Shown piece by piece: positions 16,525 to 29,827 of a DNA stretch of 64,000 bases. The stretch lies in NCBI GenBank assembly GCA_012178725.1, contig GCA_012178725.1_3030.1; one strand, given 5' to 3'. Positions within the stretch are counted from its first letter, which is position 1, and the number at the start of each line of letters is the position of its first letter. A program made the position numbers and the translations under genes. The notes beneath the pieces are model-generated. The model searched no databases. It was not told where the DNA came from and was given only the letters and a program-made list of their open reading frames with translations. The DNA comes from a phage.

Positions 16525-16950
16525 TTATTCCTTAAAGTGTGCTTTCAACATCTGATACAAGGACCATGCCTGTTCATTATTTTCAATAGTAACTTTCATG
16601 ACCGGGAATTCTGTGAAATCTTCTATTTGTTCTTGCTCTTTCTCTTCCTGCTCTTGCTCTTCAGCTGCCTGGTATGGATTTTCAACTTCATCAAAGAACC
16701 CAGCTTCGCTAGTAGAAAGCCAGATAAAGTTTTCGTCAAGGATATCACCATGTGTTGCATATCCAACTGTGCCAGTAGATGTCACAATTTTAGTAGGACG
16801 ACCAAGATGGTCAACATCTAAAATTTTAAAAGGATGCATACCTAAACGGCGCGCATAGATTCCGTTATCAGTATGATCTTTAATAAAATTTTCTTGAGCT
16901 TGTTTATTTTTAAATTGATACCATTTATTAACTTCAAATTTAATAGCCAT
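16525..16950 (-). CDS. goF: Hypothetical protein with acidic tail (goF-like position and size)
   Basis: 141 aa; acidic run [18 protein letters not shown]; position between 39 and motB. Confidence 0.4.
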
Positions 16951-17165
16951 TAATAAGTTTCCTTCCAGTAAGTTGTGCCATCTTCAGTAATTTCACGAAA
17001 TACACCGTAAATTGGTTGTTTATCACCAACCTTTTCATACACATAAACCGAAGTCAAGTGAGTAAACTTAACGGTATGTTCTTTTTGAACTACTACCAAA
17101 TCTGGATCGAATAGTACATCTTCAAATTCGTCATTAGTGCAATTCTGAACAATTTTACGTTTCAT
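16950..17165 (-). CDS. Hypothetical protein (cef-like position and size)
   Basis: 71-aa ORF; ATGA overlap with neighbour. Confidence 0.4.
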
Positions 17166-17178
17166 TACAATTTCCTCA

Positions 17179-17448
17179 TTAATTGAACAGTGGAGCGATG
17201 CGTTTCAGAAGAGTAGCAGCACCTTTAGCGAATTTTACATCATGAAAAACAGTTTCTTCTTCCGTTACAACACGAGCTTTAATGTTTTCACAATCCCAAT
17301 TTTTGCGAACAATCTTCAAAAGCTGCAGTAAATCTTTACATTCAGCAATATCGATAACACATCCACGAGAATCTTCCATTATCGCACGATAACCGTAAGC
17401 CATACCATAATCATTGAAAGATTGCTCGATGATAATTAAATTTTCCAT
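17179..17448 (-). CDS. Hypothetical protein
   Basis: 89 aa from ATG (MENLIIIEQ...) with GGAGAATAAA SD; track ORF starts at an upstream TTG. Confidence 0.5.
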   Translation of the reverse strand: MENLIIIEQSFNDYGMAYGYRAIMEDSRGCVIDIAECKDLLQLLKIVRKNWDCENIKARVVTEEETVFHDVKFAKGAATLLKRIAPLFN

Positions 17449-17545
17449 TTTATTCTCCAAGTTGTTTTCTGTATCAGTAGTTGATATTGATATAGTACCA
17501 TAATCAACTACTGATGTATATAGTTTTATGAAAAAATTTTAAACT

Positions 17546-18037
17546 TTATGCATAGCGAGCTTTGCTATAGTGTTTAATCCAACTTTCAGGAATGACTTTG
17601 TATGTTCCTAAAAATACCGCGTTGTATAACTTAACGCCATCTTCTACCCATTGATCAGTAATGTATGCACACATAGCGCGAGTACGGTTAACAACACCTT
17701 CCTCACCTTCAGTAAATTCAAACTCATAAGGAGCAACGAACTTAATAGCCTGACCGAGTTTCCACTTAAAGTCTACACCTACATGCGAAGTATCAATCGT
17801 TTCAATTCCTTTAGCGGGAACAGCTTTCAAAAACGCAGGCTCAAGAAATTTCCATCGAACATAACCAAACTGAGGTTTAGACATTCCATCTTTAGGAATG
17901 ATACGCACTTTTACTTCAGAATCTTCATCTTTAACACCATGTTTAAGCTGAATGCTTACGACTTCAACCAATTTTCCTGCTGCTTTAGAACGGGATTTAT
18001 CAGATACACGAGCAATTTCACCGATATTAATATTCAT
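17546..18037 (-). CDS. motB: MotB-like DNA-binding protein
   Basis: 163 aa; T4 MotB size and position; shares C-terminal motif with adjacent paralog. Confidence 0.6.
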   Translation of the reverse strand: MNINIGEIARVSDKSRSKAAGKLVEVVSIQLKHGVKDEDSEVKVRIIPKDGMSKPQFGYVRWKFLEPAFLKAVPAKGIETIDTSHVGVDFKWKLGQAIKFVAPYEFEFTEGEEGVVNRTRAMCAYITDQWVEDGVKLYNAVFLGTYKVIPESWIKHYSKARYA

Positions 18038-18110
18038 AATTATCTCTCACTTGTTAAAAAGATTTTATACTCCGCAGGACCATTATACTCTGGTCCCAAG
18101 AGTTTGTAAA

Positions 18111-18611
18111 CTAGCTTACACGAACATTAATCACTGCGCTGCGAGGAACTACAGAGTACTCTCCAGCATGAACTACGTTCAGAAGTTCAACACCATCTTC
18201 AATCCACTGATCAGTTACCCAACCGCCAATCGGATTCGCGAATGGACGACGAATATAAACTGCCTTACACAACAAATCAGTCGGGTCTTCAATTTTTTCA
18301 ACTGGTGTTACATACATAGAAACTAAATCCATATCAATATGGGATTTTTCTTGTTCTTCTTTTTCAATTTCTGTCAATAAATTGAAATCTTCTTCATAGA
18401 TGATGAATGATGATACCCTTCCATAATAGTTTCTAATTTCCATGTACACTGTACCAATGAGAATTCCGCTATTAACACTAATAACAGTAAAAGGATATCC
18501 GCCAGTTGTACCAAGAAGTTCCCAAAACTTGCTATCAGTCGTATTCGACATTGTCTGGAAATCAATTTCAGATGGTTTTTTCATTTGATACGTAGTATTA
18601 ATTTTAATCAT
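18111..18611 (-). CDS. MotB paralog
   Basis: 166 aa; C-terminal ...GGWVTDQWIEDGVELLNVVHAGEYSVVPRS vs MotB ...AYITDQWVEDGVKLYNAVFLGTYKVIPES. Confidence 0.55.
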   Translation of the reverse strand: MIKINTTYQMKKPSEIDFQTMSNTTDSKFWELLGTTGGYPFTVISVNSGILIGTVYMEIRNYYGRVSSFIIYEEDFNLLTEIEKEEQEKSHIDMDLVSMYVTPVEKIEDPTDLLCKAVYIRRPFANPIGGWVTDQWIEDGVELLNVVHAGEYSVVPRSAVINVRVS

Positions 18612-18620
18612 AATTTTCCT

Positions 18621-19133
18621 TTAATCTAAGGTAATAAAGCCTTTTAATTCGGCATGCGATTTGCGAAACATTACTTGATGCCCACCAATGATAACTTGAT
18701 CATCTGGCACTTCATAAATCGCAATGTACATTCCACGATCTTTTAAGTCTTCACGCTCTTCTCGAGTAAACCATCTCATTATATCATATTCACTAGCGAA
18801 AGCAAAATGATATAATGCAATAAACCACAATGGAATATAATTTTCAATTCGTGAATAATCTTTATTCCATTTAGTTTTAATAGCATCATTAGCATTTTCA
18901 ACTAATAACTTATCATCGTGCGGAATAGGAATACTTTCATGACTTTCATAATTATCGCTATGATGATGAAATGACGATGAATTAATACCGCAAAATTTTA
19001 GCCAAGTTCGAGTTTTCATAGAATCAAATCCACGATAAGGAGTTGATTGAACACATAACTCTTGCCTAATTTTCATTATACCACTATCATCATTTAATGC
19101 GCTAAACGATGATTCAACACGATAAATTTTCAT
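18621..19133 (-). CDS. Hypothetical protein
   Basis: 170 aa from internal ATG (MKIYRVESS...) with GAGGATAATAAA SD. Confidence 0.5.
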   Translation of the reverse strand: MKIYRVESSFSALNDDSGIMKIRQELCVQSTPYRGFDSMKTRTWLKFCGINSSSFHHHSDNYESHESIPIPHDDKLLVENANDAIKTKWNKDYSRIENYIPLWFIALYHFAFASEYDIMRWFTREEREDLKDRGMYIAIYEVPDDQVIIGGHQVMFRKSHAELKGFITLD

Positions 19134-26775: not shown

Positions 26776-26805
26776 GTAATTCTCCTTTTATTTAAATTAC
26801 ATGAT

Positions 26806-26813
26806 TATTTATA
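26806..26813 (-). promoter_or_regulatory. Late promoter (TATAAATA on minus strand) for soc
   Basis: Reverse complement of tatttata about 30 bp upstream of the soc ATG. Confidence 0.55.
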
Positions 26814-26858
26814 ATAAATTCTCGCGGCTTTTAAGTCGTCGTTTATTTAAACGAGCTA

Positions 26859-27377
26859 TTAATAGCCTCGGTCTTGACGAGCGAAATTTTCAGCATTTTT
26901 CAGATAATAAAGTTTAAATATTTCTTCAGCTGACATTCCAAGAGCAATAAATTTATTCATGAAAAAGTGAAATTGGTCAATCAGTTCAAATTTAATTTCA
27001 AGCTGATCTTCAGGAGATAAGTCTTGAATTTTCTTGGATTGCATTTCAGAATAACGTTTCTTCCAAGGTTTCCATACGGCAGAAGCTTCTTTTTCACCAT
27101 TACTCATACCACCAAGAGAAGTATATAGCTCGCGAGTTTCATCTGCGATATAATCGTCTTGGTTTCGCAACCAAGCAAGAACTTCTCCTGCAGTTTCAAG
27201 TGAATCAGGATGACGATTTGTTTCTGGTTTATCATTAGCCAAACGAATCTGTAAATGCCGCTGCATATCAAGCATAACCTGCAGTGGGTCAATATTGTGC
27301 ATAATATTCTCAGCATATGCACGAGTTGCTTTATCAACACCTTCGATCAAATGAGCGCATTCATTAAAGTGAGCCAT
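26859..27377 (-). CDS. 56: dCTP pyrophosphatase gp56 (MazG-like)
   Basis: 172 aa from internal ATG (MAHFNECAHLIEGVDKA...); track ORF N-terminally extended; MotA-box middle promoter upstream. Confidence 0.88.
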   Translation of the reverse strand: MAHFNECAHLIEGVDKATRAYAENIMHNIDPLQVMLDMQRHLQIRLANDKPETNRHPDSLETAGEVLAWLRNQDDYIADETRELYTSLGGMSNGEKEASAVWKPWKKRYSEMQSKKIQDLSPEDQLEIKFELIDQFHFFMNKFIALGMSAEEIFKLYYLKNAENFARQDRGY

Positions 27378-27411
27378 TATTTTTCCTTTCAATTCATGGG
27401 TTAGTAGATTA

Positions 27412-27437
27412 ATTATACAATAAATATATAAAGCAAT
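27412..27437 (-). promoter_or_regulatory. Candidate middle promoter upstream of gene 56
   Basis: Minus strand TTGCTTTA - 11 nt - TATAAT. Confidence 0.45.
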
Positions 27438-27448
27438 AAGGAGGACAT

Positions 27449-27649
27449 ATGGTACAAAAATTAATGGCACTTGTTAATGCCATAAAAGGTAATAAAAAAC
27501 GTATAGCTTTTACTATTTCTGCTATGGTAGGAATTTTACTCTGGAACTTTATTCTATCACCTGTTGCAATTGCACATGGTATTAATATTCCAGTAGTTAC
27601 TCTTGATACATTTGTAGATTTAGCATTTGCTTTAGTTGGGTTGATTTAA
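27449..27649 (+). CDS. Small membrane protein (plus strand), 66 aa
   Basis: Strong SD AAGGAGGACAT-ATG; two hydrophobic segments; occupies the 56-61 interval. Confidence 0.45.
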   Translation: MVQKLMALVNAIKGNKKRIAFTISAMVGILLWNFILSPVAIAHGINIPVVTLDTFVDLAFALVGLI

Positions 27650-28674
27650 ATCTTAGCATATTTAGATAGCCGCATTTTAGCCATCAACCCCTGGGCAATA
27701 TTATTTTTCATATATTCCATAATTTGTTCAGGGGTTGCACCTTCCTTTCTAATCATATCATTAACATCTTTTGATTTCCAGGGAGATTTATCCCAAAACA
27801 TAACCCTTTCTCCTGCATCAACTAATTTAGTCATTCGCTTAATAGTGTCAGGATGACGAGGTTCATTATCTAAAACCCACACTCGTCTATCTTTAAATGG
27901 AACAACTTCTAGGTCTAATTGACCACCCGTAATAGCTATACCATTTTCAATAAAAAGTGAATCTATAGGTCCTTCTAGAACATATACATCACCATCTTTA
28001 ACTCGTTCGACTCCATAGATTTTTGTTGCTTCAGGATAAGCTTTGATGGTGATATATTTTTGGGGAGCATCTTTCTTTAATGCACGTCCTTGAAAAGACT
28101 CAGCTTTTCCATTAGCATTATAAATTGGAATAACAAGACGAGGCTCAGGTATTTCCTTTTTATATGTTCCCGGTGCTATACTATTAACTAATTTAGGCCA
28201 TTCGGTTGTAAACCAAAGATATTTCCATTTATCCTTTGGAATACAACGAGCTTTTACATATTTTATAATTGGATGGTCTTCCGCCAATTTATCTAATCTA
28301 ACACATGACAGAAGAGATTTAATTATTTTCTTCTCAGGTTGTTTAGGAAGTTCTTTAGGTTTTTCTACTGGACGACTTTTACCTTTTTCTTTTCTTATTT
28401 CAAAGATATACTCACGATATAAATCGGGTTCAAACTCCTTTAAATATATTCCGATTGGCGCATGATAGTTACAGTTATAACAATGAATATTTCCTTCATT
28501 ATTATCGCCATAATACCATCCACGAGCTTTATTCTGGTCGGTTTTTGAATCTCCACAAACAGGGCATCTAAACCGTAATTTAAAAGTTGAACTATTATTT
28601 ACTTGTGTGAATTTAGGTAAATGAGCTAATGCACGGTATGCAAACTCATTATCAATCCAAGGTATTGATGACAT
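27646..28674 (-). CDS. 61: DNA primase gp61
   Basis: 342 aa; zinc ribbon CPVC...CYNC plus TOPRIM-like region; T4 gp61 size. Confidence 0.95.
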   Translation of the reverse strand: MSSIPWIDNEFAYRALAHLPKFTQVNNSSTFKLRFRCPVCGDSKTDQNKARGWYYGDNNEGNIHCYNCNYHAPIGIYLKEFEPDLYREYIFEIRKEKGKSRPVEKPKELPKQPEKKIIKSLLSCVRLDKLAEDHPIIKYVKARCIPKDKWKYLWFTTEWPKLVNSIAPGTYKKEIPEPRLVIPIYNANGKAESFQGRALKKDAPQKYITIKAYPEATKIYGVERVKDGDVYVLEGPIDSLFIENGIAITGGQLDLEVVPFKDRRVWVLDNEPRHPDTIKRMTKLVDAGERVMFWDKSPWKSKDVNDMIRKEGATPEQIMEYMKNNIAQGLMAKMRLSKYAKI

Positions 28675-28842: not shown

Positions 28843-28888
28843 TTAACCTCTATTCATAAAAGCATTAAAAATTTGGTCATCAATAGAT
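28843..28888. repeat. 46-bp direct repeat, copy 1 (3' end of the 118-aa ORF)
   Basis: ttaacctctattcataaaagcattaaaaatttggtcatcaataga; 45/46 identical to copy at 29201..29246. Confidence 0.8.
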
Positions 28889-29199
28889 GGTGCAGTAATA
28901 TTTTCTGCATCATTTAGCAAATCATTAATTTCATCAAATAGCATAACACATGTACCTTTATTTCCTGTAATTGTTACTGCGCAATTACGAACGTTTTCTT
29001 TATTAAATTTTAGGTTAATATTTTCGTAATGAAAATCCTTTAATGCTGAATATATTTTTAAAATAAAATTGTCTTTTACTACAATAAACCCAACCTCACT
29101 ATTAAAACGTGGTTCATGGAAACTGTAATAAACCTTTTCATCTATAAAATCGTATGAAATTTTTTCCATTTTTAAATATGAAAATTCAGAACTATACAT
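28843..29199 (-). CDS. Paralog of the C-terminal half of the adjacent 61.2-like protein
   Basis: 118 aa; shares F(I/V)VKDN motif and identical tail SIDDQIFNAFMNR with the 208-aa neighbour; 46-bp near-exact DNA repeat at the 3' end. Confidence 0.5.
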   Translation of the reverse strand: MYSSEFSYLKMEKISYDFIDEKVYYSFHEPRFNSEVGFIVVKDNFILKIYSALKDFHYENINLKFNKENVRNCAVTITGNKGTCVMLFDEINDLLNDAENITAPSIDDQIFNAFMNRG

Positions 29200-29200
29200 A

Positions 29201-29246
29201 TTAATCTCTATTCATAAAAGCATTAAAAATTTGGTCATCAATAGAA
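29201..29246. repeat. 46-bp direct repeat, copy 2 (3' end of the 61.2-like ORF)
   Basis: ttaatctctattcataaaagcattaaaaatttggtcatcaataga. Confidence 0.8.
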
Positions 29247-29827
29247 ACATTTACTTTAGACTGTTTTTCAGATGGCAATTCATATCCACATATTACAATT
29301 TTATGATCAATATCAAAATACACAGAAGCAATATGATTAATGATATTTTCAGTGAAGTCTAAATCGACATCAATATCTTTTTGACCAAAGCCCAAAGGAT
29401 AAATAATGCGAGTAATTCGATTATCTTTAACAAAGATTCCACCGACATACTCTGTACTGCGTTTAAAGTCTACACGCCGACGAAATGAAAAATATTCAGG
29501 CTCTTTATGAGCTCGGCTCATAGGACACAACGAATAACTAGAATAAGAGATGTCAAATCCTACGCCTTCGATATGAGCCAAAGTGTCATGATTAAACCAA
29601 TTATAATCGTACGCCAAATCCATTAGATTATAATATGTAAAAGGCACCGGATTAACATCATTAGTCACAAGCATGTAATTAGCAACTGCTATAATTTCAT
29701 TGTTTTTAACGAATACAAACCGTGATTGATGCGAATGACCTGGACCCGCGTTTTCACGATTAATGATATAACACTGGGCACCTTTATATTTGTATGTATC
29801 TTTGCACTTGTGCATTTGATAGAGCAT
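29201..29827 (-). CDS. Hypothetical protein (61.2-like)
   Basis: 208-aa ORF between sp and gene 61. Confidence 0.5.
   Translation of the reverse strand: MLYQMHKCKDTYKYKGAQCYIINRENAGPGHSHQSRFVFVKNNEIIAVANYMLVTNDVNPVPFTYYNLMDLAYDYNWFNHDTLAHIEGVGFDISYSSYSLCPMSRAHKEPEYFSFRRRVDFKRSTEYVGGIFVKDNRITRIIYPLGFGQKDIDVDLDFTENIINHIASVYFDIDHKIVICGYELPSEKQSKVNVSIDDQIFNAFMNRD

Follow-up and report, generated by a model that had tools for sequence, protein, structure and literature searches.

A small gene between genes 56 and 61 of T4-like phages, the orthologue of dam.1, and its candidate late promoter

The stretch of phage DNA analyzed here, 64,000 nucleotides in length (hereafter the window), contains between gene 56 and gene 61 a short open reading frame that runs on the plus strand in an otherwise minus-strand neighborhood. 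In phage T4, dam, the gene for the DNA adenine methyltransferase, lies between the same two genes. The locus raises the question of whether this frame is a gene at all and, if so, whether it is a recently acquired moron that took the place of dam, a reading suggested by a preliminary description of the sequence, or a long-standing component of T4-like genomes with an expression and a function of its own.

Coding status, identity and distribution of the small gene

The phage from which the window derives is T4-like and belongs to the genus Tequatrovirus, and the blocks flanking the locus show 94–98% identity to T4 DNA. Gene 56, which encodes the dCTPase/dUTPase (26859..27377, minus strand), was identified by its match to PHROG 173 (E = 1.7e-44) and by alignment to the T4 annotation; its start was set from the homology with T4 gp56 and not from the longer mechanical ORF. 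The window carries a divergent allele of this gene, with DNA only about 73% identical to that of T4. Gene 61, which encodes the DNA primase (27646..28674, minus strand; PHROG 47, E = 8e-106), forms together with the small frame a block of 97.8% DNA identity to T4. The preliminary description had drawn attention to a plus-strand frame of 66 codons behind a strong Shine-Dalgarno (SD) sequence, and both are present: the frame occupies 27449..27649 and is preceded, by direct reading, by the SD AAGGAGG at 27438..27444 on the plus strand, with a 4-nt spacer to the ATG. It is convergent with gene 61, a TTAA being common to both stop codons. Its GC content is slightly lower than that of its neighbors (30.8% vs 34.6%, with a GC3 of 0.14), which are genes of replication and nucleotide metabolism.

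An ORF of 66 codons is not significant by itself, given the many spurious ORFs of similar size in this AT-rich window, and the small gene is judged to be real because it is conserved and not because of its length. Its pairwise dN/dS is 0.07–0.15 in Tequatrovirus, 0.10 in Mosigvirus and 0.3–0.4 in Gaprivervirus, and the excess of synonymous changes in the best pairs reaches P = 6e-5 in the first of these genera and P = 1e-4 in the second. Between genera the DNA is unalignable, yet the length, the frame and the sequence motif of the product persist at 25–55% amino-acid identity, and an SD is present in all the homologous loci. As measured by these substitution patterns, the small gene is under purifying selection, with a dN/dS of about 0.1. 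One could still argue that the locus is non-coding and that the open frame is a by-product of overlapping signals, namely a gene 61 terminator, promoters and the origin region, citing the shortness of the ORF, the number of chance ORFs of like size in the window and the lack of an annotation in RefSeq T4. Set against the strong synonymous excess, the retention of frame, length and motif where the DNA can no longer be aligned, and an SD everywhere, we regard this explanation as very unlikely.

The homology search that had been suggested for the 66-aa protein assigned it to PHROG 2024 (E = 1.4e-31, with residues 2–66 on profile positions 1–65 of 65), and recovered a T4 orthologue and several hundred further records. 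PHROG 2024 is a family of function-unknown proteins, the members of which include dam.1 of phage T4T (ADJ39749.1), RB69ORF029w and RB32ORF030w. In the RefSeq record of T4 (NC_000866), dam spans 16846..17625 and gene 61 spans 17935..18963, with the 309 bp between them left empty; the orthologue of the small gene lies inside this gap at 17738..17938, with 64 of its 66 residues identical, and its SD and its stop overlap with gene 61 are those of the window. T4T, which was sequenced independently (HM137666), labels this orthologue ‘dam.1, hypothetical protein’; it is named RB69ORF029w in RB69 and RB32ORF030w in RB51, and a newer T4 record has a hypothetical protein there. The gene is, in short, already catalogued and widespread, yet uncharacterized and absent from RefSeq T4.

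By tblastn, we found the protein in 693 phage records, of which 687 are covered to at least 80%; about 500 of them come from Tequatroviruses and reach at least 90% identity, and 190 have less than 60%. When 1.84 billion representative proteins were searched with a profile, and the distant matches were then used as tblastn queries, relatives of 60–69 aa were obtained from Kanagawavirus, Jiaodavirus, Gelderlandvirus, Dhakavirus and unclassified Citrobacter and Enterobacter phages. A word-indexed protein search with P0080 returned the query alone, and a family HMM run against the six-frame ORFs of the window detected no paralogues. Seven genera (Tequatro-, Mosig-, Gapriver-, Dhaka-, Kanagawa-, Jiaoda- and Gelderlandvirus) have the gene at the same site and in the same orientation. 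In every locus that we opened, it is opposite in strand to its neighbors and situated just beyond the 3' end of gene 61. The 4-bp overlap of the stop codons is usual among these loci; DK-13 and Bp7 lack it through insertion of a homing endonuclease gene between the small gene and gene 61, and in PKO111 and TH40 the two are separated by a short spacer. The small gene is absent from the checked loci of RB49, GAP161, Aeromonas phage avDM5 and Acinetobacter phage KARL-1, which are T4-like phages outside Tevenvirinae. In these outgroups, gene 56 or other same-strand genes come directly after gene 61 with no space for the small gene; in RB49, for instance, gene 61 is followed by gene 56 after a gap of 14 bp.

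These patterns allow the moron proposal to be divided into a part that stands and a part that does not. The layout is moron-like: within a conserved block, in which gene 61 adjoins gene 56 in RB49 and the outgroups lack the insert, the small gene lies on the opposite strand with a promoter-like box and an SD of its own, and in several relatives (Bp7, PKO111 and TH40) with a terminator as well. Its slightly lower GC content and the absence of dam from the window are also in keeping with a recent, lineage-specific acquisition that replaced dam. However, T4 carries the ORF next to dam, which already refutes such a replacement. Moreover, the distribution is neither sporadic nor indicative of recent entry, as about 690 records, nearly all of them with high coverage, place the gene at the same site in all the sampled Tevenvirinae genera; the dam-less layout is that of the majority; and the near-identity to T4 of the ORF and gene 61 makes the ORF part of a conserved block. 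We consider the recent replacement of dam extremely unlikely, and hold with high confidence that the small gene is a resident, conserved gene of Tevenvirinae and the orthologue of dam.1. The only sense in which the term moron survives is that of a single ancient insertion, which possibly, and plausibly, took place in the ancestor of Tevenvirinae.

The gene 56 junction and dam as variable cargo

The small gene had been described as standing where T4 has dam. This is correct insofar as T4 dam does lie between genes 56 and 61, but T4 has the small gene there as well. The reported lack of dam was borne out: tblastn with T4 Dam detected no homologue between genes 56 and 61 or anywhere else in the 64-kb window, the part of the genome that this search covered (best E = 0.8). 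More broadly, 184 phage records were found to contain T4-type dam, as against the about 500 Tequatrovirus records with the small gene, and a contiguous 56-ORF-61 layout like that of the window is seen in 323 of 514 close relatives. The gap between gene 56 and the small gene has no cargo in the window, dam in T4, a 186-aa ORF together with dam in an IMG/VR locus (L011) and a homing endonuclease in phage fPS-90; in further cases it is filled by MazG-like genes, three small ORFs or a 1.5-kb ORF. The smaller number of dam records and the changing cargo imply that dam is an optional insert, and the small gene stays put as the cargo on its gene 56 side changes. Thus, going by the compared genomes, dam is variable and acquired-looking cargo, the small gene is the resident, and the dam-less layout is the majority state.

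The 186-aa partner, which directly abuts dam in L011, is matched by the PADLOC model REase_II (E = 9e-5) and, below threshold, by Pfam DpnII (E = 0.0045). In T4, a remnant of this partner is found between dam and dam.1, comprising its last 17–20 codons only. This points to the dam cassette as an inserted and decaying restriction-modification-like module, which about a third of Tequatroviruses carry. The comparison shows the 56/dam.1 junction to be an insertion hotspot, with the dam gene of T4 having the look of a relic of such a module.

Divergent transcription signals between gene 56 and the small gene

On the strand opposite to the small gene, the preliminary description had also recognized a candidate MotA-type middle promoter for gene 56, and this is now well supported by its sequence pattern, its position and an independent annotation. 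The promoter (27412..27438, minus strand) is made up of the MotA box ATTGCTTTA at 27438..27429, an 11-nt spacer and the -10 element TATAAT at 27417..27412; its core, TGCTTTA-11 nt-TATAAT, covers 27435..27412. It has the composition that characterizes MotA promoters, namely (a/t)(a/t)(a/t)TGCTT(t/c)A about 11–13 bp upstream of a -10 element TAnnnT, with no -35 element. The more general pattern TGCTTNA-N10-13-TANNNT is enriched in the window (23 matches vs 6.7 expected). The distance of the -10 element to the gene 56 ATG, 34 nt, is precisely that seen in T4, and the position of the promoter is conserved in five lineages from four genera, including Mosig-, Gapriver- and Dhakavirus. In Yersinia phage fPS-90, the sequence of which is identical at this site, it has been independently annotated as a ‘predicted middle promoter’. 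According to the T4 record, the gene 56 transcript primes the origin oriA, and the promoter in the window is homologous in position to this 56/oriA promoter of T4.

Upstream of the small gene itself, the plus strand contains a late-promoter-like box, AATAAATA (27419..27426), which agrees with the T4 gp55 consensus TATAAATA (positions -13 to -6) at 7 of 8 bases. The box is situated 22 nt upstream of the ATG, giving a predicted transcription start near 27432, and in the dam-less window it falls within the spacer of the middle promoter on the opposite strand. Its core, ATAAATA, is found 15–22 nt upstream of the ATG of the small gene in 11 of 13 lineages, with ATTAAATA in the other two, and the remaining upstream flanks are unalignable between these lineages; the chance of finding ATAAATA in such a slot is less than 1% per lineage. 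Across the window, which is mostly an early region, ATAAATA is about six-fold depleted (7 copies vs 40 expected), and the full consensus TATAAATA occurs twice vs 10.8 expected. Four of the seven copies of ATAAATA are located 18–31 nt upstream of an SD and ATG, and these belong to t (holin), soc, gene 49 and the small gene. The first base of the box is variable, being A in the window, G in T4 and C in Gaprivervirus and Kanagawavirus. The gene 49 box likewise has A instead of T at this base, in both the window and T4, and Barth et al. in 1988 are said to have reported a late promoter at that spot of gene 49. Across T4-like late promoters, the -13 T is poorly conserved (Nolan et al. 2006, PMC1524935).

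The same region could be read as the leader of a real gene with early or middle expression, with ATAAATA being retained as part of the leader or of an A/T-rich promoter region. The deviation at the first base would fit such a reading, as would the judgment of earlier annotators: the HMM-based list of RB69 late promoters by Nolan et al. has no entry at RB69ORF029w, and the annotation of fPS-90 marks no late promoter at the small gene. Further, in dam-less genomes the box overlaps or abuts the A/T-rich MotA region, be it the spacer or the flank of the MotA box, and its conservation there could be partly shared with the middle promoter. Against this, a promoter scan returned neither a sigma-70-like nor a MotA-type promoter on the plus strand upstream of the small gene. 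The distance of the box is fixed with respect to the ATG and not to the opposite-strand MotA box, relative to which it lies inside the spacer in the window, abuts it in Gaprivervirus and is 3–4 nt off in Mosigvirus and Dhakavirus. ATAAATA also persists without a nearby MotA box in T4, where dam comes between it and the gene 56 promoter, and in Kanagawavirus, L018 and MY742, and elsewhere in this early region the 7-mer has been purged. On balance, we deem early or middle expression unlikely, and late expression of the small gene, as suggested by the placement of the box, reasonably probable.

Bp7, PKO111 and TH40 additionally display a canonical hairpin terminator directly after the ORF. The fixed position of the box, its depletion elsewhere and these downstream terminators support an autonomous, one-gene late transcription unit, in which a gp55-type late promoter at AATAAATA would drive transcription and the strong SD would direct translation. 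In the dam-less genomes, this putative late promoter would be arranged back-to-back with the middle promoter of gene 56 and inside its spacer.

Two hairpins were found in the vicinity of the small gene. The first, on the minus strand at 27454..27483, is a terminator-like hairpin of 8 bp (ATGGCATT/AGTGCCAT followed by a T-run), which lies in the first codons of the small gene. It was the one site returned by a terminator scan (vs 0.3 expected), its fold has an energy of -8.9 kcal/mol (z = -2.3), and a ‘terminator’ annotated in fPS-90 coincides with it. Gene 61 transcripts may be stopped by this hairpin ahead of the gene 56 promoter, and, as it is inside the 5' end of the small gene, such transcripts would cross the whole of the small gene in antisense. 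The hairpin was dropped as a feature of the family, since it is not conserved outside Tequatrovirus. The second is a stable hairpin on the plus strand at 27685..27737, within the 3' end of gene 61 and 36 nt past the stop of the small gene (fold of 27630..27760: -30.5 kcal/mol, z = -3.1); a hairpin of different sequence is found at the corresponding place in other genera. It might block or terminate the plus-strand transcript, or else be a 3' structure of the gene 61 mRNA. An Rfam scan of 27200..27900 gave only noise.

The protein, its possible role and its relation to known systems

The product of the small gene is typified by a Lys/Arg cluster, a hydrophobic helix with an invariant Trp and a near-invariant Asn, and, after the helix, a P-x-A-x3-G-x3-P-x4-[D/E] signature followed by a hydrophobic tail in the family alignment. 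In the window protein, the motif takes the form W-N-F within the long transmembrane (TM) helix, and the C-terminal tail is short and acidic/hydrophobic. An AlphaFold2 model based on an alignment of 18 sequences (pLDDT 80) has helices at residues 2–14, 16–42 and 52–63. The N-terminal segment is net positive in nearly all members of the family, and the tail is neutral or acidic, with E, K, R or H in its distant homologues. From the sequence and the model taken together, the product is very probably a 7-kDa inner-membrane protein, for which we infer one TM helix with a cytoplasmic N-terminus and a short periplasmic or interfacial helix. That it has two TM helices, as proposed in the preliminary description, is doubtful, though still conceivable for the T-even members: the model shows one long helix (residues 16–42) and a C-terminal helix of 12 residues, and the polar tails of the distant members argue against a second membrane span.

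Scans of the window protein and its distant homologues against Pfam, NCBIfam and PADLOC detected no family above noise, the noise-level matches including GTA_holin_3TM (E = 0.1) and AaeX (E = 0.013). A sequence search of the PDB with the family profile gave nothing meaningful, and a Foldseek search of viral predicted structures with the AlphaFold2 model retrieved family members only. AaeX/DUF1656 was rejected as a chance resemblance: hhalign against E. coli AaeX gave a probability of 21.7% over 25 columns, and the NCBIfam model scored 15.8 bits, against a cut-off of 82, with one distant member only. Membership among the holins was likewise set aside, there being no Pfam or NCBIfam holin match above threshold, a C-terminus (...AFALVGLI) that is hydrophobic and not charged, and no linkage to lysis genes.

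The convergence with gene 61 and the hydrophobicity of the product could be accounted for together by a module akin to type I toxins, in which a toxic hydrophobic peptide is held down by convergent gene 61 transcripts, or in which the late plus-strand transcript is antisense to the 3' end of the primase mRNA and helps shut off the primase late in infection. The stop codons in common, the size and hydrophobicity of the protein and the minus-strand hairpin in the 5' end of the ORF, by which gene 61 transcripts would cover the ORF, are all in line with this, as is the layout in Tequatrovirus, where the plus strand has no canonical terminator ahead of the gene 61 coding sequence and the only hairpin is the one within gene 61. 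However, an endonuclease gene or a spacer stands between the ORF and gene 61 in DK-13, Bp7, PKO111 and TH40, and the ORF there can have a terminator of its own, which implies that the overlap with gene 61 is not required; the minus-strand hairpin is specific to Tequatrovirus; and the conserved W-N, P, G, P and D/E residues suggest a specific interaction and not generic membrane damage. We therefore view such a module as rather improbable. As a whole, the observations are best explained by the small gene being a resident, separately transcribed late gene beside gene 61 that encodes a small inner-membrane protein, and we consider this explanation likely.

As to function, we offer, as a guess made with low confidence, that the envelope is the target of the protein late in infection, with effects on lysis timing, lysis inhibition or membrane integrity, by analogy with the small late membrane proteins of T4 with known roles (the holin T, the antiholin RI and the spanins). 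One homologue bears an automatic UniProt label ‘Holin’. T4 already has a complete holin/antiholin/spanin set, and we know of no case in which classical T4 r-mutant genetics pointed to this locus. A search of the literature on dam.1 and on ribosome profiling and small ORFs of T4, which took in the HIDEN-SEQ and CRISPRi-ART papers, yielded no transcript, protein or phenotype data on the ORF. It is conceivable, though we rate it as unlikely, that the small gene is an overlooked late function of T4 spanning all Tevenvirinae, either a component of lysis or the envelope or a dual-purpose element that also shuts off the primase by antisense. The dual-purpose alternative, if true, would tie the switch to late transcription to primase shut-off, back-to-back with the promoter that primes oriA.

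T4 is one of the best-studied viruses, yet a gene that is intact, conserved and selected across the subfamily is missing from its reference genome (NC_000866). The CRISPRi-ART library, for one, was designed against ‘all annotated CDSs’ (PMC11879866), and functional screens that rely on the reference annotation would miss this gene. Current models are unchanged by these findings. To the existing catalogue entry, the present analysis adds evidence for a conserved late promoter, the finding that the gene is restricted to Tevenvirinae, the divergent and overlapping arrangement of the middle promoter and the putative late promoter in dam-less genomes, and the restriction-modification-like nature suggested for the dam cassette. 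If late expression is correct, the late program would gain one more small membrane protein, and the oriA region would provide a compact case of overlapping divergent middle and late promoters.

The closest known counterpart of the small gene is dam.1 and, more widely, PHROG 2024, the proteins of which range in amino-acid identity to the window protein from 98.5% (T4T) down to about 55% (the RB69 group) and the genes of which match it in strand, in position and in the 4 bp shared with the stop of gene 61. Compared with dam.1 of T4T, nothing material differs in the window, except that in the absence of dam the small gene abuts the gene 56 promoter directly; the T4 dam cassette occupies the junction that is empty in the window. 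This cassette in turn resembles the DpnII-type restriction-modification modules: DpnII cuts GATC, which is the Dam site, and in relatives of T4 the 186-aa ORF precedes dam. In its upstream signals, the small gene is comparable to the T4 late genes that lie in early regions (soc, gene 49 and t), all of which have the ATAAATA core upstream of an SD and ATG; it differs from them in that its late transcription is predicted only and in that the first base of its box is A, G or C depending on the lineage. The protein resembles the T4 lysis membrane proteins, holin T and antiholin RI, and the class II/III holins, in its small size and probable late expression, and would further share with holins and antiholins a single TM segment, an N-terminus on the inside and a short periplasmic segment. 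It departs from the lysis proteins in having no Pfam holin match and a hydrophobic C-terminus, and in not being encoded beside lysis genes. With AaeX/DUF1656, it has in common the spacing P-x5-G-x3-P-x4-E over 25 residues.

An insertion hotspot beside the micro-gene

Comparison across the Tevenvirinae revealed an insertion hotspot where gene 56 meets the micro-gene (the dam.1 orthologue), as seen at the T4 locus (L001), an IMG/VR locus (L011) and the loci of further relatives (L017, L018, L019, L021, L023 and L031). The cargo comprises dam, a REase-like ORF together with dam, homing endonucleases, genes for MazG-like pyrophosphohydrolases, small ORFs and a 1.5-kb ORF; while this cargo varies, the micro-gene remains joined to the end of gene 61. 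The REase-like ORF, a 186-aa member of PHROG 8706 found beside dam in some dam-carrying Tequatroviruses, is typified by the copy in L011 (1841..2401, minus strand), which overlaps the dam start by 1 bp. It matches the PADLOC REase_II model (E = 9e-5), and the Pfam DpnII model also aligned, below threshold (E = 0.0045). GATC is both the Dam site and the site cleaved by DpnII. All that T4 retains of this partner is a vestige of its 3' end (VLVLLSNTYDEELYNSF...), located between dam and dam.1 (L001 5640..5702, equivalent to NC_000866 17639..17701, minus strand). The T-even dam may thus be a relic of a restriction-modification-like module.

The gene 61 side

At the 3' end of gene 61, within the primase coding sequence, lies a stable predicted hairpin, CAACCCCTGGGCAA...TTGTTCAGGGGTTG (27685..27737, plus strand; z = -3.1). 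A hairpin is predicted at the equivalent place in gene 61 of Mosig-, Kanagawa- and Gelderlandvirus, among others, with differing stem sequences. It could possibly serve as a terminator or barrier for a plus-strand transcript, or as a 3' structure of the gene 61 mRNA. Further along, an additional 118-aa ORF (28843..29199) is placed between 61.1 and 61.2 (29201..29827), both it and 61.2 being on the minus strand. It is also carried by ESh33 and is missing from T4, relative to which the window has about 310 bp inserted. Since the ORF and 61.2 have a C-terminal peptide in common (SIDDQIFNAFMNRG vs SIDDQIFNAFMNRD), their sequences suggest either that part of a gene was duplicated or that an N-terminal module was exchanged.

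Late-promoter motif and T4 annotation

Across the window, an early-gene region, selection has left the late-promoter motif strongly depleted, with 7 copies of ATAAATA where 40 are expected and two of TATAAATA where the expectation is 10.8. The remaining copies mostly precede t (2652, plus strand), soc (26806, minus), gene 49 (55153, minus) and the micro-gene. The T4 micro-gene ORF (NC_000866.4 17738..17938, plus strand) is annotated in T4T (HM137666) and OL964735, and unannotated in the T4 RefSeq and AF158101 records; genome-wide T4 screens built on the annotated CDSs of a record lacking it would have overlooked it.

Gene 56 mosaicism

A mosaic boundary is seen at the intergenic region on comparing 26776..27417 of the window with T4 (L001 3575..4826): gene 56 is only ~73% identical to its T4 counterpart at the DNA level, with flanks at 97-98% on both sides. 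The window lacks segF, the homing endonuclease gene that T4 carries between soc and 56, and has only 83 bp between these two genes. The low gene 56 identity and the missing segF are consistent with an exchange of gene 56 alleles driven by SegF as a candidate explanation here.
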